NCBI GenBank assembly: GCA_965226865.1
Contig: CBDDEH010000004.1
Location: forward strand, 1,704,586 to 1,768,585
DNA length: 64,000 bases
From: Dehalococcoidia bacterium
GTDB taxonomy: Bacteria > Chloroflexota > Dehalococcoidia > Lucifugimonadales > JAGWBF01
Direction of reading: 5' to 3'
Below are positions 5,521-47,633 of this stretch, piece after piece. The position numbers and the translations under genes were made by a program. The first letter of the stretch is position 1. Each line of letters begins with the position of its first letter. A model generated the notes under the pieces. It was not told the origin of the DNA. It searched no databases and saw only the letters and a program-made list of their open reading frames with translations.

Positions 5521-5666
5521 AGTTAGCCCTTGGCCAATCCAAATCGAAAGGGAGTATAGTTTCGTGTCGAGAGTCCGTCAATCGGAAATCTTGGGAAAGC
5601 GCTTCTAGTACGTGGTAAAATCCCCTCTGGCATTCGCTGTCTAAAGTCTTCATCTCGGGAGAGACC

Positions 5667-27074: not shown

Positions 27075-27150
27075 GGGGCTGTAGCTCACCCGGGAGAGCG
27101 CTTCAATGGCATTGAAGAGGTAGAGGGTTCGAGTCCCTCCAGCTCCACCA
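27075..27150 (+). tRNA. tRNA-Ala (anticodon GGC)
   Basis: 76 nt cloverleaf folded by hand. Acceptor GGGGCTG/CAGCTCC with the G3:U70 Ala identity pair. Anticodon stem CTTCA/TGAAG with loop ATGGCAT. T arm GAGGG-TTCGAGT-CCCTC. Encoded CCA. Confidence 0.93.
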
Positions 27151-27429: not shown

Positions 27430-30400
27430 TCAACTGAGGAGGAAATCGGTCCAACTGGGCTGGTCTCGTCGTTCGACTATCTTGAGGATACCGTCGCGGC
27501 ACAGTTTCGTAGCCCTGTCGACCAAAGCCACATCCGCCTTCTTAGTGAGTGTCGCACCGTGGATGACTCTTGAAGCGAGTCCGTAGAAATCCACCAACGT
27601 TTTTCGTATGGCCCTGCGTTCCTCCAGACTGGCGCCCAAGTGCCGAGCTCCAGTGACGGACAGACGGAATCCCAACTCCCCATCGTTCGAATCGAGACAC
27701 AGGGATTCTAGCGCGATGCGAAGATCAATGAGGCGGTCTGGATTCAACACGCCGGGCGTAGCCGCCTCGGTCCAGCGAGTCACGGCAGTTTGAAACCTTT
27801 CATCAGAGTCAAGGCGTCGTTGCAACTCGCTGCTCAGTGCCCAAGCTCTCCGCAAGCCCTTCCTGCACAGGTTTCGGGTGGGTGGATCAAACGACGACAG
27901 CTTGGTGACCCCCGTGTAGAGACTGTGTGTCACGTCCTTACTAAGCCGCTTGATTGCGAGTCCCGGTCCGGCCAAGCCAATGCGCCTTCCGGTTGTGAAG
28001 GCACTCGCATCACCGAAATCGTTCCAACTCCATGCTGAGCCAACCCGCCGGTTGCAGACCAGAGACAACGCGAGGAAGAACGTGTCGAGTGAAACCTCAC
28101 CCAGTGCCGTGCAAGTCTGGAGAGGAGGATGTGCATCGGCGCTTTGCCGCGGAACAAAGAGGGCAGAGTGCGTTGACGCGTCCACCTCCAATACGGCGTG
28201 CCCAAGTATGTCAGCCACCAATTCCCATCGCAGATCGGGCATCGAAATCGGCAATGAATCTGACGAGACTGGCAGCCGATACATGTGCAGGCCTTCATCT
28301 AAGCCCGAATCCACCGAAGGACGGCCTTGGGGACAGCCTTGAAGAAGCCAGCGGGTGCTCCTCTGAATCTGGGATAATGGTTTTGGAACAGAAACCCGCC
28401 CGGAAACAAGGAGCACCCAATAGATGCTGCCACAGAACAAACCCGACCGTATCCGCATCCTCTTTGACGACCATCGCCTGGTGGCCAATGCCGGCCTGCT
28501 CCTTCCGGCCACCCTAGCCCGGCACCTGGGCCTGCGGGAACTCGTCGACCATCACCTTGACCTCGGCGGAGCGCCGGGACGGGCGAACACCGGGGACAAG
28601 ATGCTGACGCTGGTCGCTTCCGCGCTGGCAGGCGGCGACTGCATCGACGACGCCGATGCGCTGCGCGCTGGTGGGACGGTCGGTGTTCTAGGCTGCGTGG
28701 TCAAGGCGCCATCCACCCTGGGGACCTTCCTGCGCAGCTTCCGGTGGGGGCATGTCCGTCAACTCGACCGCGTGAGCCGCCAGTTGTTGGCCCGGGCCTG
28801 GGCCGCTGGGGCCGGACCCGGCGACTCGCCCCTGACCATCGACCTGGACTCGACCATCTGCGAGACCTACGGACTGGCCAAGGAGGGAGCGCGCCACCAC
28901 GGCTATACCGGCGCCCGCGGCTATCACCCGCTGCTGGCCATTGCCGCCGGCACCGGAGACGTGCTGATGTCCCGGCTGCGCGAGGGCCCGGGCCAACACC
29001 GCCCGTGGCGCCGCCCACTTCCTGCGTGAGACGGTGGGGCGGGTGCGCTACGGCGGGGCCAGGGGACAACTCACGGTGCGGGCCGACAGCGGCTTCTACA
29101 CCCACACTGTCGTTGCCGCCTGCCGGGAAATGGATGTCCGCTTCTCCATCACCATCCGCCAGCGTGCCAGCCTGCGGGACCTGATCGAGGCGATACCAGA
29201 GGAGGACTGGACTCCCATTCCCTACTGGATGGACGGCGCCGCCGATGTCGCCGAGACGACTTACACCCCGTTCCAGACCAAGCCGGACGCCCCGCCGGCG
29301 CGGCTCATTGTCCGGCGGGTGAAGCCGACACCCGGTTCCCAGCTGGCCCTCTTCGCCAGATACAGCTATCACGGCTTCATCACCGACCGGGACGGGGAGT
29401 TGCTCGAACTGGAGGCCGATCATCGCCGCCACGCCGAGGTCGAGAACGCCATACGCGACCTCAAGTACGGCGTCGGGCTGAACCACATGCCGTCGGGGCG
29501 CTTCGCCGCCAACGGCGCCTGGCTGGCGGTACAGGTGATGGCGCATAACCTGGCCCGCTGGACGGCGCGGATTGGTCTGGGCGAGCGGACCGTGATCACC
29601 AAGACCCTCAGGCGGCGGGTCTTTGCCTGGTGGGACGGATCACCCGCTCGGCACGCCGCCTCACTTTGCATCTCCCCCGGCGCTGGCCCTGGGAAACCCA
29701 GTTCAGTCGCGCCTTGGCCCGGCTGCAAGCCATTCCGTTCCCGGCCTGACGGCCAGCCTGCAACTGACCCAACGTCCCCGCAATCTCGCGCCACCCCGGT
29801 CGCGAGAGTCCCCTGCTGCGTATCCTCTCGCCATCCCGCGCATCGCAACTCCCGCATAGGGCCTTAGGGGCCCTGTGCGGCGACTGAAGACCGTCCGCCG
29901 GCCTCCCATCTACCCCAAGACCCCAGGCCATCTCCCCTGTAGCTCCCTCACCCACCCCCTTCCGCTGTCCTCACGCCGTCCATCAGTGTCCTTCGGTGGA
30001 TTCGGGCTAATTCAATGCTCTCGTCGATGTATACGCCAGCCAACACCACATAAATCTTGTAATGCCTCGGTTTCCCGCCAGTCCATAGACTGACCAACTT
30101 GGCCGCGCGGTCAGGTCCAAGGACTGCCGCAGCACGAATAAGACCTCTGGCAAAACCTGGCAAAGAAGAACTTGAGTGAATCTCCAGCACTAGGTCAGGC
30201 GTTCCGCGCAGATAGGCTTGTCTGTCGCCAATAATGGGAAACGAGTGCCCGATACGGTCGGTGCCAGCGTCTATGTACCCGCTCAGCCGATCACGAAGAT
30301 GGGCGGCCACCGAACCGATCCAGACATCGTCGACTTCGAGATACGCAGACAAGACCTCCCGCGTCTCGGACACATGGCCTGAAGTCTGAGAGAGTGTCTC

Positions 30401-30544: not shown

Positions 30545-33500
30545 TCAAACTGTCGCCCAGCCTTCAAACACGACCTCAGCCTGCTCAAGGACAGTGACTG
30601 TCGCCTTCTCCTGCTTGTCGGGCGGGTAGCCGTGCTTGCGCAGGATGCGCTTGACCATTGCCCGGAGCTTGGCGCGGACGTTCTCCCGAAGCGTCCAGTC
30701 GATAGTGACGTTGTTCCGCACGGTGTCGACCAGTTCACGGGCGATGTCACGGAGTGTATCGTCGCCGAGCACCTGCACCGCGCTGTCGTTGGTTTCTAGC
30801 GCGTCGTAGAAGGCCAATTCATCATCGCTCAGACCCAGTCGCTCGCCGCGGGCGTTGGCCTCCCGCATCTCCTTCGCAAGCTGGATCAACTCCTCAATGA
30901 CCTGCGCCGCCTCAATAGCCCGGTTCTGGTAGCGGCGTAGGGTCTGCTCCAGCATCTCGGCGAAGGAGCGAGCCTGCACCACGTTCTTGCGGCGTCGGAC
31001 ATGCAACTCACCCTTGAGCAGCTTCTGTAGAAGTTCGACGGCGAGGTTGCGTTGAGGCATTCCCTGCACCTCGGCCAGAAACTCGTCGGAGAGCACCGAG
31101 ATGTCCGGCTTGTCCAGTCCCGCGGCGGCGAAGATGTCCAGCACACCCTCGGATGCCACCGCCCGGGAGATGATCTGCCGCACGGCCAAGTCCAGATCCT
31201 CCTCGGGGCGGGCCTCGCCCGTTGCCCGCTTAGACAGCGCCGCCCTCACCGCCTGGAAGAATCCCACGTCGTCCCGAATGCGAAACGTCTCCGGGTGCGG
31301 CACGGCTAGGGCAAAGGCTTGCGACAGATCGCGGACGGCGTTCAGGCAGCGTTCCTTGCCGTCCTCTTGGGCTAGGACGTGCTCTTGAGCGGGCGGAAGC
31401 AGCCCCAACCGTTTCTGCGCATTGCCTCCCGTCCACATAGACCAGTCGAAGCCGTGAAAGAGCGCGCAACAGACCTCGTACTTCTCCAGCATCACCGCCA
31501 CCGCTTCGCCCTGGTCCAGCGCCGTTCGCCCCGTGCCCCCGCTCTCGGTGTAGGTTGCCAAGGCTGTCTTGAGGTCCTGAGCCAGACCCAGGTAGTCCAC
31601 CACCAGACCGCCGGGCTTGTCCTTGAACACCCGGTTCACCCGGGCGATGGCTTGCATCAGCCCGTGGCCACGCATCGGCTTGTCCACGTACATCGTGTGC
31701 AGGCTGGGCGCGTCGAACCCCGTGAGCCACACGTCCCGCACCAGCACAATCTGGAGTGGGTCGGCGGGATCCGCGGAAGCGGTTCGCCAACGCCTCCCGA
31801 CGAGCCTTGTTGCGGATGTGCGGCTGCCAATCCAGGGGGTCCGAAGCAGAGCCGGTCATCACGACCTTGACGCTTCCCTTGTCGTCATCGTCGTTGTGCC
31901 AACCGGGGCGCAGGCGCGCCAACTCCCGGTAGAGGTCAATGCAGATGCGCCGGCTCATGCAGACGACCATCGCTTTGCCGTCCAGTGCCTCCAGCCTCTG
32001 CTCGAAGTGGGCCACGATGTCCTCGGCGATCTGCCCTACCCGCTTCTCCGCGCCGACTACCGCCTCCGGCTGTGCCCATTTGGTCTTGAGCCTCTCCCTG
32101 CGCTCGACCTCTTCGCCCTCGGTGGCCTCCTCGAACTCCGGGTCTATGGACGGCCTCTCGCGCTCATCCAGAGACAGCTTGGCGAGACGGCTCTCGTAGT
32201 AGATGGGCACTGTGGCCCCGTCCTCAACGGAACGCTGGATGTCGTAGATGCTGATGTAGTTTCCGAACACGGCGCGCGTGTTGGCGTCCTGTAGCTCGAT
32301 GGGCGTCCCCGTGAAGCCAACGAAGGAGGCGTTGGGCAGGGCGTCCCGCATGTGACGGGCGTAGCCGTCGATGAAGTCGTACTGGCTGCGGTGGGCCTCA
32401 TCGGCGATGACCACTATGTTCTGCCTCCCCGATAGCGTAGGGTGTGTATCGCCCTTCTCCTCCGGGAAGAACTTCTGGATGGTTGTGAAGACCACTCCCC
32501 CGGCGTTCACCGACAGCTTGTTGCGCAGGTCGGCGCGACTCTCCGCCTGGGTTGGAGGCTGGCGCAGCAGGTCCTGGCAGCGGGAGAAGGTGCCAAAGAG
32601 CTGGTCGTCCAGGTCGTTGCGGTCCGTCAGGACCACGACAGTCGGGTTCTCCATGGCCTGCTCTCGGACGATGGCGCCGGCGTAGAAGGCCATGGTCAGG
32701 CTCTTGCCTGATCCTTGGGTATGCCAGACCACGCCGATGCGCCGGTCGCCAAGCTCTCCACCGGGTTTGCGGCCTGCCTCGTACCGTCCGCCCTCCTCGG
32801 CGACCTGTGCCTCGTCGCGTTGCAGCTTCGCAGCCCGCAGGGTCTCATTCACCGCGACCTTGACGGCGTGGAACTGGTGATAGCCTGCCATCTTCTTGAC
32901 CAGAGCGCCGCTGCCGTCGTCGTCAAACACGATGAAGTCGCGGACGAGGGCGAGGAAGCGGCCCGGCTCAAAGACGCCTTCAGCATCACCTGTAGCTCGG
33001 TCATGTGGGGGCCAGCCAGCGTCTCCCCAGTGACGGTGCGCCAGGGCTTGAACCACTCCCGACCGGAGGTCAGCGTGCCGATGCGGGCATCGGTCCCGTC
33101 GGAGACCATGAGCGCCTCGTTCATGGAGAACAGGGTTGGCAGTTCCGCCTTGTAGGTCTGGAACTGCTGCCAGGCCGTCCAGATGGTGGCGTCCTCGTCC
33201 GCAGGGTTCTTCAGCTCGATGACGCCTAATGGCAGCCCGTTGACGAACAGCGCGATGTCCGGCCTACGGGTGTTCCTGTTCTCGGTGACGGTGAACTGGT
33301 TGACGGCCAGCCAGTCATTGTTGGCGGGGTTGTCGAAATCGATGACCTGCGCCTGCGCTCCGCGAATGGCTCCACCGTCAGCCCGGTACTCTACCGCCAC
33401 CCCCTCGACGAGCATTCGGTGGAAGGCACGGTTGCGGGATTCAAGGGTCGAACCCTCGGGGCGGGTGAGCTTGCGGAAGGCGTCGTCCAGCGCCGGTGGG

Positions 33501-33688
33501 GGCAGGCTGGGGTTCAACTCGGCGAGGGAGTCCGGCACCCGACGCTCCAGAACCACCTGCCCATAGTCGGTGCGCTCGGCGTTGGGCGTGCCCGGCGCGA
33601 TGTCCGGGCCGTGGGCCACCTGCCAGCCCAGGGCGGAAAGCCAGTCAAGGGCGGCTTGCTCAACATCACCTTCATTTAGGTTGGTCAT
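30545..33688 (-). pseudogene. hsdR: type I restriction enzyme R subunit, two frameshifts
   Basis: Three overlapping ORFs (32849-33688, 31230-33056, 30545-31747) together carry an HsdR N-terminal nuclease region plus helicase motifs ([31 protein letters not shown]). The sense frame switches near 32977 (one G missing) and near 31771 (one extra G). Confidence 0.9.
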
Positions 33689-34741
33689 GGGTGCTCCCAG
33701 AGATGAACTCGGGGCCTATATGCAAATCGCCGTTATCAACAGGAGTCATTTGCAGTCCCTCCTGTGCGAAGTAATTGATTAGGGCTGTCTTGTAATCGTC
33801 TAGGGGTTCCGCCCGCACCACTTGGGATAACTCTAATCCCGATTGGCTAAGCGAGGCGCCACGAAGCGGGAAGCCTGGAGAACGCGGCTTCATAGAACGG
33901 GGTCCACCGACTGGATAGAGCACCCAGTACTGACTTTGAAAACGAAAAGGATATCGGTTCGTTTGATCGGGTTGGATTCTTCCAAACCCAATGGCGGATT
34001 GCATGTCATGCCAGGAATCATAGTTTGGGTTGACCAGACCATGGGTGTTGAGCAAATCCAGGTAACTGCTGCGAAAACCATGTGTCGTAATGCGGTCGAA
34101 ACACGCATTACAGACTCTACCGTCGTCGTCGCTGGCATAACGGGTTCCCTCCGAGTAGACACAAAGAACGCAAAACCAACTAAAGATGCGAGCTACGTGT
34201 TGATTCATATCCTTCAGAACACGCAGGGTTCTAAAGGACGTGCTTCCAGGCCGTTCTACTTCACCTGCAAGTATTTTCGCCCATAGTTGCTGCATATCTT
34301 CGGAGGATACGTCTTGAACATCGTCGAAGAATCGAGCAGTCCAGTCGTGATCAACTTCGTGGTCTTGGACTTCCTTGTCTCCAAGCTCCAGTGCTGCCTG
34401 TCTTACTATGCTGCCAATGTTGGCCTGTCGCTTCTCCTCCTGAAACTGAATCCTCTGCGTAACCACCGTTCCAAATTCCAACTGGCCCTGCACGGTAGCG
34501 TCTGGTGATACCAGCTTAGCGCGGGCATCTGCCTGAGCACTGGCAATGATGCCATGGTAGTTGCTTGACCTTCTGCGAGGATCCTCTGTGCTTCAGCTTC
34601 TCCTTGGGCAACTATAGATTTAGCCTTGGCTTCTTGCCGGGCTTTCCAGGAGGCCAACATGGGGCCCGCTACGCTACCTATCCCACTGGCAGCATAGTCA
34701 AGTAATTTCTCAATGGCAGGAACTTTTAGGTTGATGTCCAT
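33672..34741 (-). pseudogene. DUF2806-like protein, one frameshift
   Basis: ORF 34406-34741 gives the N-terminal helical part (IEKLLDYAASGIGSVAGPMLASWKARQEAKA). ORF 33672-34493 gives the core (EDMQQLWAKILAGEVERPGSTSFRTLRVLKDM). The frames switch near 34550. It overlaps the hsdS stop and the hsdR start. Confidence 0.6.
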
Positions 34742-36363
34742 CGGCTCACTCCGTTAACTCCAACCTCCCCCGACACCAACCCCGGCAGCAGCGCATCCCG
34801 TTGCGCAGCGAGGGTATGGGACTCGTGGATTGCCGATACGATTCGATTAACGCATGGCTCGACCAGTCTGGTGAAGGCTTTGGACACTTCTATGCTTGGA
34901 AGTGCGACCTTGTAGCGAGCCATGTCTGCCCAATTGGTGCGCGGCATCCTTGTGCCGGTAGACGTGGCATCAGTATAGGCTACAAACTCTGCGCTAGATG
35001 TATGACCAAGGACAAATCCAGACCACAGATTCGACTTGGGCTGCACAACAACAATGTCTGTTGAGCACACCCCATCCAATGGAGCGACGCCAACCTTGTG
35101 AAAGTATGGTCGCAGTTTCCCGAACAAGATGTCTCCCTGCTCGAACTTGAACTTGCCGCTGGCTAGTCCATCTGCGTTGCTCCATTGCGTAAGCGCGATG
35201 CAACGCTTGGGCATGTGTTCAAGCGCAATGTAGTGTGACTCTGCGTCAATCTCCTCCGGTTTTACTCCCGACCGGCGTTGCTTTGCCACCTCCCCAAGCG
35301 CCTTCACCCCCCACCCCTCCGGGATCTCCCCCAGCTCCGAGTCCACGAGGCGGTCGGGGAACAAGTCGTAGTGTCCGGCAGGGAGGCCGGGGAGCGACTC
35401 GCCCCTACGCCAGCGGCCCTCCATCTTGGCCCGCACCGGGTCGAAGTTCACGAACCACGACTTGAACAGCGCCCGCGCCATCGCTTCCAGCATCTCGTTC
35501 ATGCGCCGGTTCAACTCGATCTTGTCGTCCAGCACACCAAGGACGTGGGCGATGGCCCGCTGCTCCGATAGGGGTGGGAGGGGAACGGTCAAATGGTCCA
35601 GGGAGTCCACCGGTACCCGCTGGCGTCCGGAAGTGCCGGTCATTTGGCCAATAGCGTAGTTACGAACTTCCTCCCATTTGGTCAAGTAGTAGGCAAAGTT
35701 GGTGTCGGTTACGTCAGCGCGTCCTCGTATCACGATGAATTCTGTTGAGCCGTGGGCCTCTAGTTTGTCGCCCACAGCTTGGTATCGGGCGATTTTGCCA
35801 TTCTCAAGACAAGGGGTAATGCGGGCCATCAGAGTGTCACCACTCTGGAACCTGGAACCGCTGCCCTTGAATGTCCGTTCCTCCACCGAGACAGTGGTTC
35901 TCGAATCCGCATTCACAGCTGCCATGTCAACGAAGGGATAAATTGCACCCCGGTCAAGCCGAGTCGGCGGGTTGACCAGCACCGCTTCGCTGAACAGCGC
36001 CACGCGCCACGCGCCATCCACCCTCCCTGGGGCGCGTACCAATGGCAGAGCTACCCTTTGCTCCTTCACGATCTGCTTGAAGGCATGGCTGACGGCGTTT
36101 AGGTCCACCACGTCCACCGTGTAGGGAAGTGTCGAGTCCTCAAATGCGCCTTTCAACGCTCCCAACAACTTGTGGCTGAGCTTGCTCTCACCATCCAGGG
36201 CCAGGTCCAGGTCTGACGAATCCTTCGTAGTCCAATTAGTGCGGCTCCCGAACACCCAGACCTTGACATCCACAGGCAGATGCTCGCGCAGAATGCCCTG
36301 CACGATTTCAAGATGGTCAGGCCGGATGTCCACCGGGCTAGTCAAGGGATTCGATCCTCTCAT
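34726..36363 (-). CDS. hsdS: minimal nucleotidyltransferase (MNT) domain fused in frame to type I specificity subunit HsdS
   Basis: Residues about 1-105 form an MNT domain (VWVFGSRTNWTTKDSSDLDLAL ... YTVDVVDL). The rest is an HsdS with two TRDs, the central conserved helix (LPPLSEQRAIAHVLGVLDDKIELNRRMNEMLEAMARALFKSWFV) and the C-terminal helix. There is no stop between the two parts. Confidence 0.8.
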   Translation of the reverse strand: MRGSNPLTSPVDIRPDHLEIVQGILREHLPVDVKVWVFGSRTNWTTKDSSDLDLALDGESKLSHKLLGALKGAFEDSTLPYTVDVVDLNAVSHAFKQIVKEQRVALPLVRAPGRVDGAWRVALFSEAVLVNPPTRLDRGAIYPFVDMAAVNADSRTTVSVEERTFKGSGSRFQSGDTLMARITPCLENGKIARYQAVGDKLEAHGSTEFIVIRGRADVTDTNFAYYLTKWEEVRNYAIGQMTGTSGRQRVPVDSLDHLTVPLPPLSEQRAIAHVLGVLDDKIELNRRMNEMLEAMARALFKSWFVNFDPVRAKMEGRWRRGESLPGLPAGHYDLFPDRLVDSELGEIPEGWGVKALGEVAKQRRSGVKPEEIDAESHYIALEHMPKRCIALTQWSNADGLASGKFKFEQGDILFGKLRPYFHKVGVAPLDGVCSTDIVVVQPKSNLWSGFVLGHTSSAEFVAYTDATSTGTRMPRTNWADMARYKVALPSIEVSKAFTRLVEPCVNRIVSAIHESHTLAAQRDALLPGLVSGEVGVNGVSRWTST

Positions 36364-36769
36364 GGAGTCGATTCAGGAGATACCGGGCTTCCTGTAGGAA
36401 GTCGGGAACGCTCTCGAATACCTCCTGAGCTTTCTCTTCGTTGTAGGTGTGGCTGGTCGTCCCACGGTTCCTGCGAAACTCAAGCCACTCAGGGAGTTCG
36501 GACCTGAGCAGAGATTGCCTGTAGGCTTCCCGTACAACGTCATTGAAGACGAGTTCGTCGATCTCGGCTGGATTGGCTGACGCAAGCTCCAGATACCGCC
36601 TCAGCATCCTGAAGGAGAGCTCGTAGGTGAACTCGAACGCCTGGATTACGGCGGCCCTCAGGTGTCTCTTGAGGCGAGGGTGATCCAAGGCTAAGTCGGA
36701 ATGGTAGATGTCCAGGGCTTCTTCCAACTGGGCAACGGCATCCTCAAGCGGTGTCAAGTCCAGCTTCAT
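36338..36769 (-). CDS. HEPN-type protein, HI0074 family (nucleotidyltransferase substrate-binding protein)
   Basis: 143 aa from the ATG at 36769, 4 nt after the hsdM stop. Motif FRRNRGTTSHTYNEE matches RNxxxHxY. The longer ORF-track start at 37078 lies inside hsdM in another frame. Confidence 0.8.
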   Translation of the reverse strand: MKLDLTPLEDAVAQLEEALDIYHSDLALDHPRLKRHLRAAVIQAFEFTYELSFRMLRRYLELASANPAEIDELVFNDVVREAYRQSLLRSELPEWLEFRRNRGTTSHTYNEEKAQEVFESVPDFLQEARYLLNRLHERIESLD

Positions 36770-36773
36770 CAGA

Positions 36774-38378
36774 CTACCTCTGTGCCCCGAATCCCAAGCG
36801 TGCCAAGTTCGCCTCGATCTCCGCGTCCAGCCGATGGGCCTCAGCCTGCTGCTCCCTCCATTGAGCAGAGAGTCGAGCCATCTTCTCCTCGAAGGGCTCG
36901 CCGTCGTCCTCCTGCGGCTCCGCGCCGACGTAGCGGCCGGGGGTGAGAACGTGGCCGTGCTTGCGGACCTCCTCCAGCGCCGCACTCTTGCAGAAGCCGG
37001 GTACGTCGGCGTACTCGCCGGAATGTTCCTCCCCGCGCCAGGCGTGGTAGGCGTCGGCGATGCGGGCGATGTCATCACCGGTCAGCTCCCGGTGGGTGCG
37101 GTCAACCATGCGCCCTAGCTTGCGGGCGTCGATGAACAGCAGTTCGCCCCGCCGGTCCCGGTGCTTGCCGCCTCTACGGTCCCTGGACAAGAACCAGAGG
37201 CAGACGGGTATCTGCGTGGAGTAGAAGAGTTGACCGGGCAGGGCCACCATGCAGTCCACCAGGTCCGCTTCTATGAGGTTCTTGCGGATCTCGCCCTCGC
37301 CTGACTGGTTCGACGACATGGAGCCGTTGGCCAGGACGAAGCCGGCAGCGCCGCGCGGCGACAGGTGATGGGCCATGTGCTGCACCCAGGCGAAGTTGGC
37401 GTTTCCCGTGGGCGGGACGCCATACTGCCACCGCTTGTCGTCCCGCAGCCGATCGCCGCCCCAGTCGGAGATGTTGAAGGGGGGATTGGCGAGGATGTAG
37501 TCGGCCTTCAGGTCGGGGTGGCGGTCGTTGTGGAAGCTGTCGCCGTGGGCGATGTTGCCCTCAATCCCGCGAAGAGCCAAGTTCATCCTGGCCAGCTTCC
37601 AGGTGGTGTGGTTGGACTCCTGGCCCCAGATGGAGATGTCGCCGCGCGCCCTGCCCCCATTACCGTTCCCGCTAACGTGGGCATTGATGAACTCTATCGA
37701 CTGCACGAACATGCCGGATGAGCCGCAGCAGGGGTCGTAGACACGGCCTTGGTAGGGTTCTAGCATCTCCACCAGGAGCTTGACGACGCAGCGCGGGGTG
37801 TAGAACTCGCCGCCCTTCTTGCCCTCGGCGCTGGCGAACTGGGAGAGGAAGTACTCGTACACCCGTCCCAGCACGTCTTTCGAGCGGGCTTCCGCGTCTC
37901 CAACCTGGATATTGGTGATCAGATCGATGAGCTGGCCCAGACGGGTCTTGTCCAGGGCGGGCCGGGCGTAGTCCTTGGGCAGCACGTCCTTGAGCGCCGG
38001 GTTGTCTCGCTCAATGGCGGTCATGGCGTCGTCCACCAGTTGGCCGATGACCGGCTGCCGCGCCTGCGCTTTGAGGTGAGGCCAACGAGCCTCCGGAGGC
38101 ACCCAGAAGATGTTCTCGCCGCGGTACTCGTCCATGTCTTCGGGGTCATACCCTTCTTCGGTCCTCGACTCCAGCCAGGCGTGCAACTCTTGGAAGGCGT
38201 CGGAGATGTACTTGAGGAAGATGAGGCCGAGGACGACGTGCTTGTACTCGGCGGCGTCCATGCTGCCCCGAAGGGCGTCGGCCAACCGCCAGAGCTCGGC
38301 CTCGTAACCTGTCAGAGCGCCACTGCTCGATTCGGTGTTCGCGCCGGAGGCAGTCCGTCTCTGTGGCACAGTCGTCAT
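36774..38378 (-). CDS. hsdM: type I restriction-modification N6-adenine DNA methyltransferase subunit
   Basis: 534 aa ORF with an HsdM N-terminal domain, the SAM motif [12 protein letters not shown] and the catalytic NPPF ([15 protein letters not shown]). Confidence 0.93.
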
Positions 38379-38626
38379 GATGCCTCACCCCTTGGTTTGC
38401 TCTTGGAACGCCACCTGTCTACTTCGCGTAGGGCGTTCTTGCCCCCCGGTCCGTATCCGTGATGGACCAGGAAGCCGGGGACGCCGCCGTACTCGACGGA
38501 TATCACCGCAGACTCGGCGGTCTTGTCGTGGCCGGGCAGGAAGAATGAGCCGATTGCCGTCTCCGCGCCGCAGCCGCACCAGCACTCGCCGGTCGGCAGC
38601 AGGCGTTTGGTTGAAGCCATTCTCAT
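38375..38626 (-). CDS. small Cys-rich protein of unknown function, coupled to hsdM
   Basis: 83 aa from the ATG at 38626, with GGGAG upstream. It contains CWCGCG ... FFLPGHDK. Its stop overlaps the hsdM start (ATGA). Confidence 0.5.
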
Positions 38627-38927
38627 ATCTCCCGAAACGAGACCATTGGAATGCCCTTGGACACTGTCCAAGGATACGTTCCTAGGTGCTTCCGAGTCAA
38701 TGCGGAATGGGGAGTTTGATGCCCCACGTCCCTCCTTATGGCCGTGCTCAGGGGCGCTACAACCTATCTCCCAGCCCATCGCAGCCGCTCTAACCAGCAA
38801 CCCTTTTGCCCTCACCACAAGATTGGACTCGACACAATGGCTTGCAAGGCATTACATGCCCGGGTTTTCCGTTCACAATGGGATGTTGGGTAACTGCTTA
38901 CTAAAGCAATGCGCGACTCTGGCACAG

Positions 38928-40661
38928 ATGGGAACGAGGACCTCTAATATGGCTGCGTCCGACCGACAGATGCTTGACTCCCTCAGCCGGATGCCATTCG
39001 TTGATTCGGCGGAGCTGGCGGGCATCCTGGGCGAGCCGCACACGACGGTTCACCGAACCCTGGCCGGCCTGCTGGCTGACGGCATCATCGGGAGGGTGAG
39101 TCACGGCACAGCCCACCTGCCGTCGAGCCAGAGATTCCACCTTACGACCAACGGCATCAGACAGGCCGCCGAAGTACTCGGCTTTGCGACTCCCTCGGAT
39201 TTCGTGCGCGCCTACCCTGTGTCCAGGGAGTGGCTCACGCTGCTCCTCCGCCGGATGGACGCGGTGGCCGCCGTCTACCGACTCGCCGCCTCGATGTCGC
39301 CCGGCATCGACGGGCTACGTTCGCACGTGGAGTTCCACCGGCGGGGGCGCTTCGACGCCACAATCATCAGGCACGACGGCCGCAGCTTCGGCGTGGTGCG
39401 CCAGGGCCTGGCCCTGCGGCGCCGGTCGCTCTACGATCGGCTGAGAGCCATAGCCGAGTACGACTACACGCGCCGCCCCGACACCGTTCTGGTCCTTGTG
39501 CCCAGCGTCTGGGAGGAGAGGCTGACAACGAGGTTCTGCGGGAACCGGAACCTCCGTGACTGCTTCGTCGCCGTGGAGCCCAGGGACGCTCTGGAAAAAC
39601 GGGACCTTCGCCTCTGGTGTTGCACCTCGTGGGTGATCGGTAGCAGGTTCTTCTCCCTGGGGGCCATCAGCTCCCGCGCCAGCCCCGGCGGAGGGCCTCG
39701 CACGGAGTCGCCGGAGCGGAAACGGGCGTCGCTGCCCCGCCCCGAGCGGATGGTGAAAGGTGCGCCGGCCTTCGGCGTCAGCCCGTCTGAGAAGCGGACG
39801 CTCGACCTCGTGACCGACCACCCGATGATCCCCCGTGAGCACCTGGCCCTCTGGCTCGGCATCTCCGAGGGACGGGTCAGCCAGATGATGCGCGGCCTCA
39901 TCAACACCTGGGGCCTCGTCGAGCGTCATGGAAAACGCGGAGACACCCGCTATACGCTGTCCGCCGAGGGCATACGCTACGTCACCCACAGGGACCGCGC
40001 CCAGCTTCCCACCACGCGGGGCATCTGGAGCACCGCCCTCACCACAGACAAACAGGGCTGCAGACGGTACGTGGGCCACCGCATCGAGACGTGGGCGAAG
40101 CAGACGAGGCACGCCGACGGCATCACGTGGTTCCTGTCGAAGCTGGAGGCCGAGGCCAGGGCAGACCCCGACAACGAGCTGGTGTGGTCCGTCCCCACCG
40201 CCAGGTCCGACAGGGCCTACAACTGGGGCGATTCAGCCATCGCACCCGATGCCGTGGGGCAGATGACCGCCCAGGGCCTTCAGATACCGTTCTACTTCGA
40301 GTACGAGCTCCGTGCCCGGCATCCCCAGGGAGTCATTGCCCGCCTGGACCCCTACATGAGCTACTACTGGTCAAACGAGCCTAAGGACGACCAGCCGCCG
40401 TACCCCGTCACCCTGTTCGTCGTGGACACCGAGGAGGTGGAGGCAACCTACGTGCGCACCGCCGCCCGGATGAGCCGGATGTCGCCGCCCATCTTCGTGT
40501 CCTGCGTGCCTGTTCTGTCCCACACGGGGGTACTGGGACGTTCCTGGCGTCCACTGTGGGAGCCGGAGTCCCCACGACTGCCCCTGTCCGCGCTGCGTGC
40601 CTACCAGTGGGACTCACTCCACCACCGGATGCGTCATCGTCCTGTAGGGGGGAATAGATAG
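38928..40661 (+). CDS. tandem winged-HTH / replication-relaxation (Replic_Relax-like) protein
   Basis: There are two successive modules, each a MarR-like wHTH followed by a Replic_Relax-like region (second copy: APDAVGQM ... IPFYFEYELRARHP ... VTLFVVD). The start is uncertain (ATG at 38928 or 38949). The ORF-track start at 38523 overlaps the divergent gene. Confidence 0.55.
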   Translation: MGTRTSNMAASDRQMLDSLSRMPFVDSAELAGILGEPHTTVHRTLAGLLADGIIGRVSHGTAHLPSSQRFHLTTNGIRQAAEVLGFATPSDFVRAYPVSREWLTLLLRRMDAVAAVYRLAASMSPGIDGLRSHVEFHRRGRFDATIIRHDGRSFGVVRQGLALRRRSLYDRLRAIAEYDYTRRPDTVLVLVPSVWEERLTTRFCGNRNLRDCFVAVEPRDALEKRDLRLWCCTSWVIGSRFFSLGAISSRASPGGGPRTESPERKRASLPRPERMVKGAPAFGVSPSEKRTLDLVTDHPMIPREHLALWLGISEGRVSQMMRGLINTWGLVERHGKRGDTRYTLSAEGIRYVTHRDRAQLPTTRGIWSTALTTDKQGCRRYVGHRIETWAKQTRHADGITWFLSKLEAEARADPDNELVWSVPTARSDRAYNWGDSAIAPDAVGQMTAQGLQIPFYFEYELRARHPQGVIARLDPYMSYYWSNEPKDDQPPYPVTLFVVDTEEVEATYVRTAARMSRMSPPIFVSCVPVLSHTGVLGRSWRPLWEPESPRLPLSALRAYQWDSLHHRMRHRPVGGNR

Positions 40662-41216: not shown

Positions 41217-41705
41217 ATGGAAATGACCTCTCGGAAGTCTAAGATGAGTGATGGACGGGCATCAAGGGCCGGAGACGATCAGCCCGACCTCAAGTGGGTC
41301 GTGGAGTGGCTCGTCGAGCGGGAAGGACAACGCCGGACGGCGGCGCTGCTGGGCGTGAATCGGAAGACGGTGGCGCTGGCCCTGCAACGGGAGCGATTGA
41401 CGGGCAGGATGACCCTGGCCGTGCAGCGGCTCATGGCGAACCTGGACGATCCCGGATGGGAGAAGACGATCCCGGTGGACCGGTTGGAGGCGAGGATCAG
41501 GCTGGCGATTGAGGCAGTGGACGATCTTGCGAGGCTGGTGGAGCGTCTGACCCGGCGCGTGGAGACCTTGGAGGCGGCGCAGACGACCGGGGACGCCGCC
41601 GGAGACCAGGAGGCGGATGCGCCCGATTCCGAGAGCCGGGGCTTACGTCTGTTCAACTGGAGGCGGAGGCACCAGCCGCATGGCGAGGAAGAGAGCGATG
41701 GCTGA
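41217..41705 (+). CDS. hypothetical protein with putative HTH (AALLGVNRKTVALAL)
   Basis: 162 aa ORF in a GC-rich segment. It has a coiled-coil C-terminal half. I recognise no family. Confidence 0.4.
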   Translation: MEMTSRKSKMSDGRASRAGDDQPDLKWVVEWLVEREGQRRTAALLGVNRKTVALALQRERLTGRMTLAVQRLMANLDDPGWEKTIPVDRLEARIRLAIEAVDDLARLVERLTRRVETLEAAQTTGDAAGDQEADAPDSESRGLRLFNWRRRHQPHGEEESDG

Positions 41706-42141
41706 GCAGGTCCGCTGGGTCTCGAAAGCGGAGGCGGCGCGGGAGCTGGAGGTCTCCATCTCAACCCTCGACCGGATGATCCGGAGGGGGGAGATTGAGG
41801 TCCGCAGGGAGGGCCGCCGGGTCTACGTGCGGCAGAAGGGGCCGGAGTACGTGAGCGACGACGAGCTGTTGCGCCGGTCCCTTGTTCGGGAGGACAAGCT
41901 TCAGCGGACCGTGTGGGAGCTGGATGGGCGAGCATCGGAGTTGGAGCGGGAGAGCGACGAGGCCAGGGAGTCCGCGTCCGCCAGCCGCCAGGCGTATGAG
42001 GAGCTGGAGGAGGAGTACCGGAAGGAGCGAGCCGCACACAAGGTGACGAGGGAAGGGCTCATCGCGGTCCGCGTGACCGCCTTCGTGCTGTTGGCGCTGC
42101 TGGTCGGCAGCGTTCTCCTGTGGTGGTTTGTGCTGAGGTAG
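41698..42141 (+). CDS. excisionase/MerR-type HTH protein with C-terminal transmembrane helix
   Basis: The ATG at 41698 overlaps the previous stop. WVSKAEAARELEVSISTLDRMIRRGEI is Xis-type HTH-like. The C-terminus VTAFVLLALLVGSVLLWWFVL is hydrophobic. Confidence 0.5.
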   Translation: MAEQVRWVSKAEAARELEVSISTLDRMIRRGEIEVRREGRRVYVRQKGPEYVSDDELLRRSLVREDKLQRTVWELDGRASELERESDEARESASASRQAYEELEEEYRKERAAHKVTREGLIAVRVTAFVLLALLVGSVLLWWFVLR

Positions 42142-42189: not shown

Positions 42190-45100
42190 TCAACCAATAG
42201 TTTGCGTGCTCTTCGGTGAAGAAGAATGACACAGGGGTCTGACGCTGAGGAGGTTGAATAGTGATGACCCTGCCTGAAGAGACGTGGACACGCCGTTGCC
42301 TGAATTGAACGTCAGTGTGCGGGTATTCGCTTGACCGAAGGCTCGAGTGATCTCGGTCCGACTGACGGCGTCGCCAAGGTCGCCATGGTGGTAGATGCAT
42401 AGCAGAATGATGTTACCCGCGTGACGAGCACCACCAGCATTAACGTGATCACAATGCTGCGCTTCCATAATCCGCCGTCGATGTTCGGAAACCTCGACAT
42501 AGCTTGATAGCGGTGCCAGGGTCTGGGGTTCGGCCTCGGCAAGGCAGGCTTGGCAATGCCAAGCATACTGCTTCTCTTTGAGGTCGGCAATCTGGGAACT
42601 CTCATCCGCTGGCTGAGTCCGGCTATTGTTGTTCCTACCTTTGCTAATTCTTTTGATGACCCCGTCACCTTTGACTCCGTTATTCTTCGGAATGGGACCA
42701 AGGTTGGGAAGATTCTTTGACGGGTCAATCTTTGGCACTCGGTGGATAGCTGATGTTTCAAAGGGACTCACGTCTCTGCTATCTCGACTAGTGGTTTCAC
42801 CGTTCTCTACATCCTCCGGAGGTTGTACTCCTTCTGAATACTCCAGAGGATAGCTTTCTCTCATCTCCATCTTCAACGCTAGATCAAGGACGGAGCCGTA
42901 GTACTTCTTGGGGCGTTCGAATGCTCGATCAGCGAGTGCGTCGAAGAAGACCGCCCGTAGGTCCGAAGCTGATCTGATCCAGAGTGTGCCGGACTCTGTG
43001 TCGAGCTTCCCATCTACTGCAACTTGGAATCTGTTCCTCCCCAACTTATAGGTTGCGATGACAGAATCCGAAGTCCGTATGCCTTGGATACTAGCTAGGC
43101 GTTCACGCCAGTTGCTTCTGAGCGCGCCTTGGCGCGCATCAAGGTCGAGTTTGGCCAGCCTCCTTTGCAGCTGCCTTCCCTTCAGGCCGGATATGAGAGA
43201 GTCAAGTATGCGCCTAAAGTCGAATTTTCGAGTAGGTTTGTCCTCTCCCGTTCCTATTGTCGCGATTGGTTCTCCGGCATAGTCACTCAGTGTCCTCACT
43301 TGAAACTCTCGTAGGCGGGCAGTGACCGGCTCGGTTACTCGGGGGCTCTCCACGATGGTTAACTCCACCGGGCGCCGTCCCGTATGCTGCCTTATCGCCT
43401 GTTCTAGCTCCTCGAAGTCAGGGATTACTACCTTACTCCTGCTCTTGGTAGCATCCGCCTTTGTCACTAACCGTACTTTGCCTCCATCGTCCTCGACCAT
43501 AATGAACGGAACCAGAGGGAACATGTCGCTCCATGCGCGTGGTCCGGATTCATGATTGATGTGACGGAGGACTTGATCAGTATGCCTAACAACGACGTCA
43601 GCTTGCTGAGATGCTAGCCACTGAAAGGATTGTCTAGAGCTGTTAGCACTAGGCGTCCCACCGACGACGCCTATCTGTCTATACAGCCTTTGCGTTTCGG
43701 GATTGATATCGGCAACTGGAGCGTGTATCTTCCAGTCGCCCCAGAAGTCCCGGCTTCCTCGCAGTGCAATTTGCTTTGGAGAGCGCAGTTCCCCCTCCAC
43801 GGGTATGCAAGGGATATCGAGCAAGCCGTCGGGTTCTAAGTCCTGGCGTCTGGACTGTTTCACGTATTCTTGAAGCCTCGGCACATGTGCCTCACTGCGG
43901 GCAGCATCCTCACGAAGAGTGTCAACGATTTGGTCAGTCGAGGGAGCGGGCCGCGGCCTCCAGCCATCGATCCTGTCGAGGACACTGTTGGGGCGATCAA
44001 TTATGTGTTCACCCAGCAAGTGAAGACGTAGCATTGCCCCTTCGTTTCTCACCAACTCGCCTGGAACCCTCAAGTTCCCGTTCTTGTCTAAGGCAACGCT
44101 ATACACCTCAGCCAACTCGCCCAGGTATTCCTTCAGTTGTGGTGTAGAGGAGGCGAGGACCGCAAGGTCTTTCTCAAGCTTGTGGAATTCGCGTCGCTCA
44201 TTGGCGGTCAGCTTTCTCTCACGGGGAAATCTGTCGATTCGCTCCGATAAGAATTTCTCGAACTCCTGGAAGGAAGGCACGTTCCTGAAAGTCAGCCGTC
44301 CCCTCCCTTTCCTACTTACAAGGCCACTTCTCAGAAGCTCGCGAGAGGATCGTACGACCACATCACCCATGATGGATGCGACGCGAGTGTGACCTGCCCC
44401 CCAAAAACTGGTCCAGTTATAAACTCGTAAAGTGGAGCTGGTGAGAGGGGGTAGTCAATGGCGAGTAAAAAGCGCAGTGTAGAAGAGATCATAGGGAAGC
44501 TGCGGGAAGCGGAGGTGGCCCTGGCGCAAGGGGAGACGGTGGCCCAGGCATGCAGGGGTATCGGGGTATCAGACCATACGTTTTACCGGTGGCGGCAGCA
44601 GTATGGGGGCTGAGAATAGACCAGGCGAGGCGGTTGCGGGAGATGGAAGCGGAGAACGGACGACTCAGGCGTGCGGTAGCGGACCTGACGTTGGACAACC
44701 AGATTCTGAAGGAGGCAGCACGGGGAAACTTCTGAGCCCGGCCCGCCGGCGGAGATGCGTGGAGTTGGCACGGGAACGGTATGGCATCTCTGAGCGGCGC
44801 GCTTGCCGGGCGCTTGAGCAACCCCAGTCAACACAGAGGTACACTGCAACAGTGGCCGATGATGAGGAGGCCCTGACGATGGCAGTGGTTCGGCTGGCCA
44901 GTCGGTACGGACGGTATGGGTACCGGCGGGTGACTGCCATGCTGCAATGGGAGGGATGGAGAGTGAACCACAAGCGGGTGGAGCGGATCTGGCGACGGGA
45001 AGGACTCAAGGTACCAGCCAAACAGCCCAAACGGGGCCGACTCTGGCTTACTGACGGCTCCTGCGTGCGGCTGAGGCCACAACGACGGAACCACGTCTGG

Positions 45101-47633
45101 GCATACGACTTTGTGGCCCTTCGTACCAGTGACGGCAAACCCGTTCGTCTCCTGACAGTGGTGGATGAGTATACCAGGGAGTGTCTGGCCATCCATGTGG
45201 GTCGCTCGTTACGCTCACCCCATGTCATTGAATGCCTGGGGGACCTCATGGTCCAGCGTGGCGTGCCGGAGCACCTCCGCTCGGACAACGGGCCGGAGTT
45301 CACCGCCAGGGCGGTGCGGTTGTGGCTCCAAGGGGTGGGAGTCACAACCCTCTTCATCACACCGGGTAGCCCTTGGGAGAATGGGTATGTTGAGAGCTTC
45401 AACGGCAAGCTTAGGGACGAACTCTTGGACCGGGAGCTCTTCGATACCCTCTGGGAGGTGCAGGTCCTCACCGAGCAGTGGCGCCACGAGTACAACCACC
45501 AACGCCCCCACAGCGCCCTGGGCTATCGCCCTCCTGCTCCAGAGGCCATCCTCACCTCCTCTGCTCCAAGCGCTATCAGTGTCTCATGATTTGCGGTACA
45601 ACTATTGGGGGCAGGTCAAGTGTTACGAGGCTCACACAGGCTGTTCAGGGGCAGCATGTTGCCATTGGAACTTGGCCACACGGGCAAGTCGGCGATTCGT
45701 GTCAGAGTTTTCCTTCGCTTGACTTTTCTCCAGTTATTGTGGAGCCACGTCCAAAACGACTTACGCTCAGCCAGTGAAGCCGTTTCGAGTTGACCATTAT
45801 CGAGGTAGTCGTCCAACGTAAATGGCTTGGGTCTCCAAGCTCTCCGCTTCAGGAGACGGTGATCCCGTAGCTCTGGATGAACAATCGGCACGTACCCCCG
45901 CTGCCCGAGATCTGGCGGTAGATTCACGGCACTAAACATTTCCGCCAGTGGCCTCGCCGTGCCGCCAGCGTCGGGCAGGTAGGCATTCTCTATGACCTCT
46001 GATTCAACTGGCGCTCTACGTTCGTAGAAGGCCTTGTATGCGACATCCAAGTAGGTTCTTGCAACTGAAGTGTTACCTAGAGCCGCTTGCCATTCGGGTT
46101 CGTCCTTCCATGGAAAGTGTTCAGCTTCCTGTTGAGGCTGTAGGCGTTCGATGGCATCGTCTTCATCGAAAGTAGTCACGAGGTCATCAAAGCCGTCGTT
46201 AGGCAGATAACAGTTGTCGCCCAGATAAGACAAGATAGCCCTAGGGACAGTCCTGTCAATCTGATCTTCGCCATGTGGACATATGTCCGAGAGAAGATCA
46301 GAGATTCGCTGGCGGTCCCATGTAAACATTGGCAAGACGACCCTGCGAAGAGTGCCGTCGGATGTCTTCCTTGGTCCCAGCACAAGCCTCTTGGGTCGAC
46401 TTGATGCCCGTACTCTGTCTGCAAGTGGCAACGCCCGCCTGTCAAGTGTGCGGCCCAAGAGATCCTTCAGGGGTTCATTCCATGGAGTATGAGGATCGGC
46501 CAGGTAGAGCTCCATCGCCCTCCCGCCGTGTCGATGAAGCAGATAACTGGCCATGATATCTACAAGTGCGTCTTTGCACCCATCGTCAATGTAGTCGTTC
46601 AGAGAGTCTATCTGACTGGTGCCATGTCTTTCGGCATCAGAGAGGTAAGGACCTGAGAAGTGGACGCCCACTCCACTTAGCGCCGATTGCGATGTAGCGT
46701 CATATCCAATCGGGTATCTTCGAACTCCCTTGGCTGACTTCGGAGTGCCTCTCTTGTCTGTGAGCCACGCTATCTCTGCCGTGAAGGATTTCCCGTCCCT
46801 CGCGAAGAAGTCTGGAATCTCGGGGCGCCTTCCTGTAGGGAATGGGAGCCTGAACGTGCAGGCCTGCTCGTGTATGGAAGTTGAAGGTACGTCAGGCACG
46901 TTCGAGGTGGTGGTACACTCCCTGCCAATGCTGTAAACCGTCTTCGACCCCTGCCATTGACGTTCCGCCCTCTCTTGGCTCGCCAATGAATTTCGACAGA
47001 CCCTAGAGTGTGGTGGCTCAGGCGAAGCGTGTACTGATCACGAATTCCAGGACGGACTACACCCATCAGCCTGCCCGGTAGAAGTTCGCAGGCGTTCCTG
47101 AAGAGTGCCTCTAGTGAGATTTCATCAGGGATTCCAATCGTTAGAGCTTCACCCTTCTCAACTACTAACTCCCGTTCGCGGTAAGGGACTTCAATGGAGC
47201 ACCCGGTAGGCGGAGCCGTATTGTCCGGGACCGGCTCCAGAAACGTTCCCGGCGATGGCTGATTCTCATAGCCGTACTGATACAAGGTCTGGACCATCCT
47301 GAGGCCATCTGACCGCACAATGAATTCATCGCCGAGCCAGAAACACGCCTTCAGGCCGTGGTTCTTAACGCCTATCTGGAACCGCTTGCTCTCAACCCTG
47401 ACACCCGCGCCCATCACATAGGAGAGCCGGCACCAGCCATCACCGCTTACGGGTTCACCGTCTCCCTGGCAGATCAGCCGGTCAGAAGTGAAGGTGATGG
47501 AAGTACGGGATGCTTTGGCGTCCAAATCATTCTGAATAAGCTCAACTATCAGGTCAGCGGAGCGCAAGCCCTTTAGGAACTGCCAAAACCGTGGCTCATC
47601 ATCGAACCTCTGGACATATCCCGGACCTTCCAA
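42190..47633 (-). pseudogene. giant ORF of about 1400 codons with a GHKL (sacsin/MORC-type) ATPase head and a C-terminal HNH nuclease, split by an IS3-family insertion and one frameshift
   Basis: N-terminal Bergerat motifs ELIQNDLDA, QGDGEPVSGDGW and IGVKNHGLKACF. C-terminal WHCQAC ... HCDHVNAGGARHAGNIILLCIYHH. The stop of ORF 45616-46986 is the IS terminal TGA. Removing the IS plus one AGTG joins it in frame to ORF 42190-44370. There is a frameshift near 46.97-46.99 kb. Confidence 0.75.
44390..45618 (+). mobile_element. IS3-family insertion sequence (IS407-like ends)
   Basis: Inverted repeats TGACCTGCCCCC(C)AA at both ends. 4 bp duplication AGTG (44386-44389 and 45619-45622). orfA starts at 44458 and is broken at the G5 run 44605-44609. 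orfB with its DDE domain runs to 45589 (WAYDFV, TVVDEYTRE, SDNGPEF). Confidence 0.9.

Follow-up and report, generated by a model that had tools for sequence, protein, structure and literature searches.

Why should the specificity subunit of a type I restriction-modification (R-M) system begin with an enzyme of the kind that neutralizes a toxic RNase? The question is raised by a minus-strand operon of a Dehalococcoidia bacterium (assembly GCA_965226865.1, contig CBDDEH010000004.1, positions 1,704,586 to 1,768,585; this 64,000-nucleotide stretch is called the window, and coordinates refer to it unless another locus is named). Open reading frame (ORF) calls and Pfam searches gave, at a single locus, the order hsdM, a HEPN gene, hsdS fused to a minimal nucleotidyltransferase (MNT) domain, a cargo slot and hsdR. 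We propose, with a probability of roughly 0.6, that a type VII-like toxin-antitoxin (TA) pair of the HI0073/HI0074 class is built into this type I R-M operon, and that the antitoxin is the N-terminal domain of HsdS. The genes and domains on which the proposal rests, including the two target recognition domains (TRDs) of HsdS, are as follows:

36774 to 38378, minus strand: hsdM, type I N6-adenine methyltransferase subunit, 534 aa; PF12161 HsdM_N (1.7e-25) and PF02384 N6_Mtase (2e-107); stop codon TAG
36338 to 36769, minus strand: HEPN gene of the HI0074 / NTase_sub_bind family, 143 aa, predicted RNase toxin; PF08780 and TIGR01987
34726 to 36363, minus strand: MNT::HsdS fusion ORF, 545 aa from the ATG at 36363 (539 aa from the TTG at 36345), no internal stop; PF18765, PF01909 and PF01420
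36046 to 36342, minus strand: MNT domain, aa 8-106, with G39-S40, D51, D53 and D84/D87; matches to 1NO5 and 8XEH_E, and Foldseek
36013 to 36045, minus strand: inter-domain linker, aa 107-117 (PLVRAPGRVDG), with in-frame TTG (aa 108, 36042-36040) and GTG (aa 115, 36021-36019); AlphaFold2 predicted local distance difference test (pLDDT) below 50 at aa 109-113
34729 to 36012, minus strand: HsdS part, aa 118-545, comprising TRD1, a central conserved helix (aa 265-305), TRD2 and a C-terminal helix (aa 491-531); PADLOC and Foldseek

The initial annotation had described a HEPN gene of the HI0074 family between hsdM and hsdS, starting 4 nt after the hsdM stop, and both the ORF coordinates and the family assignment bear this out. 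The HEPN ATG follows the hsdM TAG after TCTG, with AGAGG 7 nt upstream of it, and the product scored far above the cutoffs of PF08780 (8.7e-31, 107 bits; cutoff 31.8) and TIGR01987 HI0074 (84.9 bits; cutoff 55.8). In the Pfam search it matched neither the HepT family PF01934 nor any domain other than NTase_sub_bind, and no ABC-ATPase of the PrrC type was present. Matches in the PDB were to HI0074 (1JOG, 1.2e-21) and to the Legionella pneumophila HEPN toxin (8XDJ, 2.2e-10). Its motif RNRGTTSHTY holds R102-x4-H107-x-Y109 (RX4HXY), and Q43 and E46 are also present; in homologous HEPN genes RX4HXY was kept at the same position in 46 of 50 and Q-x-F-E in 45 of 50, the exceptions being truncated copies. 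The fusion ORF overlaps the HEPN 3′ end by 26 nt if read from the ATG at 36363 and by 8 nt if read from the TTG at 36345. This TTG, which overlaps the HEPN stop within TTGACTAG, is equivalent to the codon at which relatives are annotated to begin (M-TSPVDIR). The three genes hsdM, HEPN and MNT::hsdS are thus tightly packed and probably translationally coupled. The HsdM itself is 94-96% identical to that of the relatives L001-L003.

Within the fusion ORF, aa 34-103 matched PF18765 (Polbeta) and PF01909, while the HsdS body matched PF01420 and the PADLOC model Specificity_I (8.8e-94 over aa 220-537). The MNT sequence matched HI0073 (1NO5, 7.3e-15) and the Legionella MNT (8XEH_E, 7e-4), and an alignment of 63 fused homologues showed no variation at G39, S40, D51 and D53 and almost none at D84/D87. 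The AlphaFold2 model derived from these 63 homologues (mean pLDDT 85.5) comprised a compact N-terminal alpha/beta domain, a linker at 106-117 (pLDDT < 50 at 109-113) and a canonical HsdS. By Foldseek, the N-terminal domain resembled HI0073 (1NO5; template modelling (TM) score 0.87, root-mean-square deviation 1.4-1.8 Å), the Legionella MNT antitoxin (8XEO; 0.83) and MntA (7BXO, 6M6U), and the body resembled the S subunits of PacII, MJ0130, TTE and EcoKI (7VS4_C, 1YF2, 3OKG and 2Y7C). PF01420, PADLOC, AlphaFold2 and Foldseek all agreed on two TRDs separated by two conserved helical regions, the architecture that defines an HsdS. As modelled, the protein is a discrete MNT domain, a flexible linker and then a complete HsdS, in keeping with the earlier description of a 545-aa ORF in which a complete MNT runs without a stop into a two-TRD HsdS. 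Judged by their sequence matches, the MNT and HEPN belong to the HI0073/HI0074 branch, a sister to HepT/MntA.

The fused arrangement is not peculiar to the window. With the 545-aa protein as query, dozens of clusters defined at 90% identity were retrieved that combine Polbeta and Methylase_S (50-95% identity, ~97% coverage). Among the 120 best homologues, 90 were fused and carried the N-terminal MNT motif; they were about 450-720 aa long, mostly 500-570, and one was a 448-aa fragment. In some of them (for example P0002, P0005 and P0014) MNT and linker were identical and the TRD1 sequences different, so the fusion has outlived TRD swapping. Two fused homologues (716 and 723 aa) had an additional DUF559 domain. 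This domain, of Vsr/MTES_1575-like endonuclease fold, was found inserted between the TRDs in some fused S subunits of 716-843 aa (L024 5998-8529, L035 5989-8466, P0021 and P0036), and the fused S subunit of L024 also carried two MNT domains in tandem. When the MNT domain alone was compared with 1.8 billion cluster representatives, 874 matches below 1e-10 were obtained; among the best 150 of these, 84 proteins had at least 480 aa, 48 were intermediate and probably fragments, and 18 had at most 144 aa.

For genomic context, an MNT alignment was scanned against one genome per species, which yielded 52 loci; the alignment was seeded from the window's own MNT subfamily, and the proportions of fused and unfused forms are biased accordingly. 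In 43 of the 52 loci the MNT shared its reading frame with the HsdS match and this frame stayed open for 480 codons or more, and two more were cut by contig ends. An intact RX4HXY HEPN lay directly upstream in 38 of the 43 fused loci, its stop overlapping the MNT start, and hsdM stood immediately upstream in most of these 38 (27 by adjacency test). The hosts were mainly metagenome-assembled genomes (MAGs) of Dehalococcoidia, Anaerolineae and Caldilineaceae; others belonged to Acidobacteriota, Holophagales, Latescibacterota, Opitutales (Verrucomicrobiota) and Acidimicrobiaceae (Actinomycetota), and two were archaeal, a Cenarchaeum sp. and a Nitrosopumilaceae MAG. The cassette spans at least six bacterial phyla plus ammonia-oxidizing archaea. 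Across these phyla and the Nitrosopumilaceae/Cenarchaeum loci, the HEPN proteins of L003-L054 were 51-97% identical and the MNT domains 55-97% identical. Many of the MAG bins carry names (APA_, RHO1_, SB06xx) that we take to denote sponge-microbiome projects; near-identical cassette parts in different phyla and domains, together with these presumed sponge bins, suggest transfer between phyla and between domains within one habitat.

A cultured representative is Zymomonas mobilis ATCC 10988, whose plasmid pZMOB01 encodes hsdM, a HEPN of the HI0074 family, a 527-aa protein annotated as 'restriction endonuclease subunit S' in which Polbeta spans aa 17-105, and hsdR. A published hsdS deletion on a plasmid of Z. 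mobilis ZM4 (PMC8432527) was considered as a test of antitoxin loss and set aside: the HsdS of pZM32 is a plain 420-aa protein, with no HEPN or MNT.

Is the fusion real? It would be only apparent if the assembly had missed a stop or frameshift, or if HsdS were initiated separately at the GTG (36021-36019) or the TTG (36042-36040) of the linker, and the tether would then be irrelevant. The window does contain indels in hsdR (see below) and possibly in the DUF2806 gene next to it. Moreover, unfused HsdS homologues begin 2-20 aa ahead of the conserved W-x-E-x-P-F-S-E-A, and the linker GTG, four codons ahead of the conserved Trp, is placed exactly as such an unfused start (M-x-G-E-W), with GGGAGG just upstream. 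However, this GGGAGG directly abuts the GTG, and the zero spacing would make for poor initiation; AAGGAG lies 18 nt from the linker TTG, so that the combined Shine-Dalgarno and start signal within the linker is weak. The GTG is also confined to the clade of the window itself; the 12 codons preceding the Trp contained no ATG, GTG or TTG in 27 of 35 parsed fused relatives (L001-L051), and the linker varied among homologues in length (about 13-45 aa) and in sequence, being of low complexity. An internal HsdS start is thus not conserved across the fused family as far as its sequences tell. The in-frame junction, on the other hand, recurs in L001-L003 and, with other linkers, in the 43 fused loci of the species-representative genomes and in the RefSeq Z. 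mobilis; its conservation in dozens of genomes argues that it is no missed stop. Even if an internal start were used, full-length fusion would still be produced. The initial annotation had proposed both a survey of homologous hsdS genes and a search for an internal start; the former upholds the in-frame fusion and the latter, carried out on the sequences, turned up no conserved start. Collectively, we regard a merely apparent fusion as highly improbable.

That the pair acts as toxin and antitoxin is suggested by its characterized homologues. The Legionella HEPN is a toxic RNase that requires Mg and relies on Q44/E47, and its Y105, within RX4HXY, is AMPylated by the MNT (PMC11586414); in Shewanella, SoMntA polyadenylylates HepT (PMC7641770). 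The HEPN-MNT toxin-antitoxin homology put forward in the initial annotation is upheld by the structural matches to HI0074/HI0073 and to the Legionella proteins, and by the retention of the catalytic and acceptor residues. The pattern of gene decay points the same way. The MNT catalytic motif was kept in all 41 loci with an intact HEPN, whereas seven loci had a broken HEPN and an intact fusion, and only two MNTs (L052 and L045) were degenerate, neither accompanied by a HEPN of the HI0074 type. This asymmetry, with no intact HEPN lacking an intact MNT and the reverse in seven loci, fits a TA pair. In L052, a Dehalococcoidia locus (5261-7643) without a HI0074-type HEPN, a canonical MntA (PF01909) and then HepT (PF01934) stand between hsdM and hsdS; they are followed by a remnant of the old MNT (GS changed to ES, DLD to YLS) and a separate 439-aa HsdS.

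Unfused relatives indicate how the fusion may have arisen. Acetobacter plasmids (e.g. NZ_CP015169) carry hsdM-HEPN-MNT-hsdS-hsdR, that is, the gene order and the HEPN and MNT families of the window, but with MNT (100 aa) and HsdS (415 aa) as separate genes 12 nt apart; on sequence grounds, we view this operon as an evolutionary intermediate. Stand-alone pairs in Gemmobacter, Z. mobilis NCIMB 11163 and a Bacteroidota MAG (L054) likewise have HEPN then MNT, with the genes overlapping. Anantharaman et al. (PMC3710099) state that MNT is 'almost always' first in MNT-HEPN dyads. The initial annotation had considered HEPN before MNT an unusual order; the stand-alone pairs and the Acetobacter operon contradict this for the present family, for which HEPN-first order is the norm. 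It is this order, HEPN first and MNT second, that makes an N-terminal MNT fusion to the next gene possible. By identity, the closest counterpart of a stand-alone MNT was usually a fused form and not a further stand-alone MNT, in a sample biased toward fused forms, which hints at repeated fusion or fission.

The state of the restriction gene bears on what the cassette might do:

30545 to 33688, minus strand: hsdR, split in three ORFs; tblastn with the HsdR of L002; Pfam HSDR_N, SWI2_SNF2/ResIII and T1RH-like_C

In tblastn, the intact 1047-aa HsdR of L002 aligned to the window in three segments, in frames -1, -3 and -1. Alignment of the DNA with L002 located two single-nucleotide indels, a deletion near 32981 and an insertion near 31772, each at a short G run, with the total of 3144 nt unchanged. 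The window hsdR may therefore be a pseudogene, with the restriction arm dead, or may reflect an assembly error; this double frameshift is absent from the initial annotation. In the closest relative, L001, hsdR carries an insertion sequence and hsdM is truncated.

By analogy with the Legionella and Shewanella homologues, a HEPN dimer or tetramer would be an RNase that arrests growth, and the MNT domain would use ATP to AMPylate Tyr109 of RX4HXY and so hold the RNase off. From the architecture, toxin control would depend on the ongoing synthesis and integrity of HsdS, which bears the sole antitoxin, and probably also on the M2S1 core, since HsdS is unstable unless it is bound up with HsdM. An enzymatic antitoxin would suit such a fusion, stoichiometric amounts being unnecessary. 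The 12-kDa N-terminal domain is unlikely to block assembly, since EcoKI tolerates HsdM joined to the N-terminus of HsdS (Roberts et al., PMC3510504). The most likely consequence would be addiction, that is, the hsdM-hsdS module would be shielded from loss or disruption: loss of the 5′ part of hsdS, whether by deletion, recombination or frameshift, would also take away the antitoxin, making the hsdM-HEPN-hsdS block hard to lose. Abortive infection as a back-up once the R-M core is disabled is a possible second role. We favour addiction over defence because the window and L001 have kept the cassette although their restriction activity is probably gone. That the tether might couple toxin release to the condition of the R-M complex, as the initial annotation proposed, is plausible by analogy with PrrC-EcoprrI, but genetic addiction to hsdS is simpler and fits the data equally well. 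Only tentatively do we suggest that MNT::HsdS might serve as an integrity sensor of the type I methyltransferase core, such that when HsdS is destabilized by a phage anti-restriction protein, by proteolysis or by loss of HsdM, antitoxin activity would drop, newly made HEPN would escape AMPylation and growth would stop. If true, the immune complex would have an enzymatic antitoxin covalently joined to it as its guard, a mechanism both widespread and shared between phyla.

Several observations weigh against the proposed built-in TA pair. The MNT scored 36.6 bits, below the 60-bit NCBIfam equivalog cutoff for MntA (NF047752). The GTG of the window's clade sits where an independent HsdS would start, and some separate HsdS could be made. 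The fusion is kept in the seven loci that have lost HEPN, as if a useless MNT were not quickly purged or had another role. The cassette is retained in L001 and in the window, with its doubly frameshifted hsdR, although restriction is probably dead in both. Finally, for the whole fused family, toxicity, AMPylation and complex formation are predictions.

The seven HEPN-less loci and the tandem MNT domains of L024 would also suit a scheme without any toxin, in which the HEPN binds the substrate for a nucleotidyltransferase made of two proteins and this enzyme, recruited to HsdS, nucleotidylates some other target, for instance an R-M subunit, thereby regulating restriction, or an invading molecule. 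HI0073/HI0074 were first described as just such a two-protein nucleotidyltransferase (Lehmann 2003, as cited in PMC2701414 and PMC11586414). We nevertheless consider this scheme quite unlikely: the Legionella homologue is a proven toxic RNase neutralized by its MNT (PMC11586414), RX4HXY and Q-x-x-E are conserved in 45-46 of 50 HEPNs, the asymmetric losses are a TA signature, and the refilling of the L052 slot by canonical MntA/HepT suggests functional equivalence with a TA module. A different view accepts the toxin and likens the cassette to PrrC: the tethered MNT would keep HEPN inactive at M2S1 or R2M2S1, and a phage anti-restriction factor (a DNA mimic such as Ocr or ArdA, or a Stp-like peptide) would release it by binding or distorting the complex and bring about abortive infection. 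In favour of this view, the hsd operon harbours the HEPN gene as EcoprrI harbours prrC (PMC3710099, PMC12707154), the tether brings the antitoxin to the very subunit around which the whole complex is organized, the cassette neighbours defence genes (KwaA and ThsB-TIR in L002; DUF2806 in the window), and the fusion recurs with several MNT subfamilies. Yet AMPylation is covalent and catalytic, so that disturbing the complex would not by itself reactivate a modified toxin; Pfam revealed no counterpart to PrrC's ABC ATPase that could act as a sensor; and the cassette persists despite a broken hsdR in the window and in L001. Such a guard is conceivable but, in our judgement, doubtful, and we lean towards addiction.

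The window pair shares its HEPN and MNT families with HI0073/HI0074 of Haemophilus influenzae (1NO5, 1JOG) and with the type VII HEPN-MNT pair of L. pneumophila (8XDJ, 8XEH, 8XEO; PMC11586414). It retains their RX4HXY acceptor tyrosine, Q-x-x-E and GSX10DXD, and has the overlapping HEPN-then-MNT order of the stand-alone members of this family. Whereas those systems consist of two separate small proteins, in the window a 545-aa HsdS carries the MNT at its N-terminus, and the pair is flanked by hsdM and the TRDs within a type I R-M operon. In Shewanella oneidensis and Aphanizomenon flos-aquae, HepT/MntA (PMC7641770) likewise combine a HEPN RNase with an adjacent enzymatic MNT antitoxin, and their fold matches (7BXO, 6M6U); the RX4HXY of HepT (catalytic R and H, acceptor Y) is present in the window HEPN as R102-GTTS-H107-T-Y109. 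In contrast to the window, however, the HepT HEPN belongs to PF01934 rather than PF08780, the gene order is reversed and the antitoxin is not fused to HsdS; the window MNT, as noted, falls below the MntA cutoff.

PrrC of EcoprrI, an anticodon nuclease in a type Ic hsd operon, is also a HEPN-superfamily RNase inside an hsd operon (PMC3710099, PMC12707154), and we propose a similar logic, in which an RNase is kept latent through R-M proteins. PrrC has its own ABC-ATPase regulatory domain and is masked non-covalently, whereas the window HEPN has no ATPase and is predicted to be AMPylated covalently by the HsdS-fused domain. DarTG2 in enteropathogenic Escherichia coli (EPEC; PMC12255303) is a TA system embedded in a type I R-M locus too, but it lies between hsdS and hsdR and is unrelated in sequence. 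The engineered EcoKI HsdM-HsdS 'Type IMS' (PMC3510504) demonstrates that a large N-terminal HsdS fusion still yields a working enzyme; its partner is HsdM and it was made in the laboratory, whereas the fusion described here is natural and widespread and has an antitoxin-type nucleotidyltransferase as partner.

Anantharaman et al. (PMC3710099) reported many HEPN-R-M linkages, the PrrC analogy and occasional fusions of HEPN-M to MNT and methylase domains. An MNT-HsdS fusion was not found in the text of that paper, as distinct from its figures, one of which bears the label 'RM_TRD' and may already depict it, nor in Makarova 2009/2013, the Payne 2024 preprint on embedded defence, the 2025 EcoSal R-M review, the 2026 BREX survey or literature searches. 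The fusion is abundant in databases, where it is annotated as 'subunit S' only, and apparently it is undescribed. R-M and TA or abortive infection modules are often neighbours, but cross-talk is known in detail solely for PrrC-EcoprrI; here, the predicted antitoxin enzyme would be a covalent part of the subunit that organizes the whole R-M complex, and the cassette is a model in which a coupling of immunity to suicide, or addiction to an epigenetic system, can be tested. There is also a consequence for annotation. Fused proteins carry the name 'restriction endonuclease subunit S', and at least one PADLOC specificity model includes MNT without comment: positions 2-91 of the 'Specificity_I' model PDLC03138 align to the window MNT (36333-36061, aa 11-101). 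The model was evidently built from MNT-fused S subunits and will label stand-alone MNT antitoxins 'specificity subunit'.

The remaining features around the operon are:

33672 to 34741, minus strand: cargo slot between hsdS and hsdR, with a 111-aa ORF (34741-34406) overlapping a 273-aa DUF2806 ORF (34493-33672); PF10987 DUF2806, 2.2e-34; TIGR03899 below cutoff
38375-38818, minus strand: small Cys-rich ORF (ECWCGCG...GHDKTAES), directly upstream of hsdM and overlapping the hsdM start
27075-27150: tRNA-Ala(GGC) adjoining serS
29034-29867: DDE transposase fragment
38523-40661: 712-aa MarR/Replic_Relax protein, divergent from hsdM
41617-42141: HTH_17 excisionase-like ORF
44603-45589: rve-family insertion sequence transposase

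GC content drops to about 50-55% in the cargo slot, and its 111-aa and 273-aa ORFs may be one frameshifted gene. Neither the 111-aa ORF nor the 147-aa ORF upstream of hsdM gave a match in PADLOC, Pfam or NCBIfam. The same slot holds other genes in relatives: KwaA, a 306-aa protein, a ThsB-type TIR protein and 8xMP in L002 (11638-14184), and a 274-aa protein with two small ORFs in L004. The Cys-rich ORF, which may be a regulator, is conserved in several relatives, including L002 (7726-7971, 81 aa as called) and L004 (3530-3973). The surroundings of the R-M cassette are typical of mobile elements, and its Replic_Relax and HTH_17 neighbours are also found in L001 and L002.

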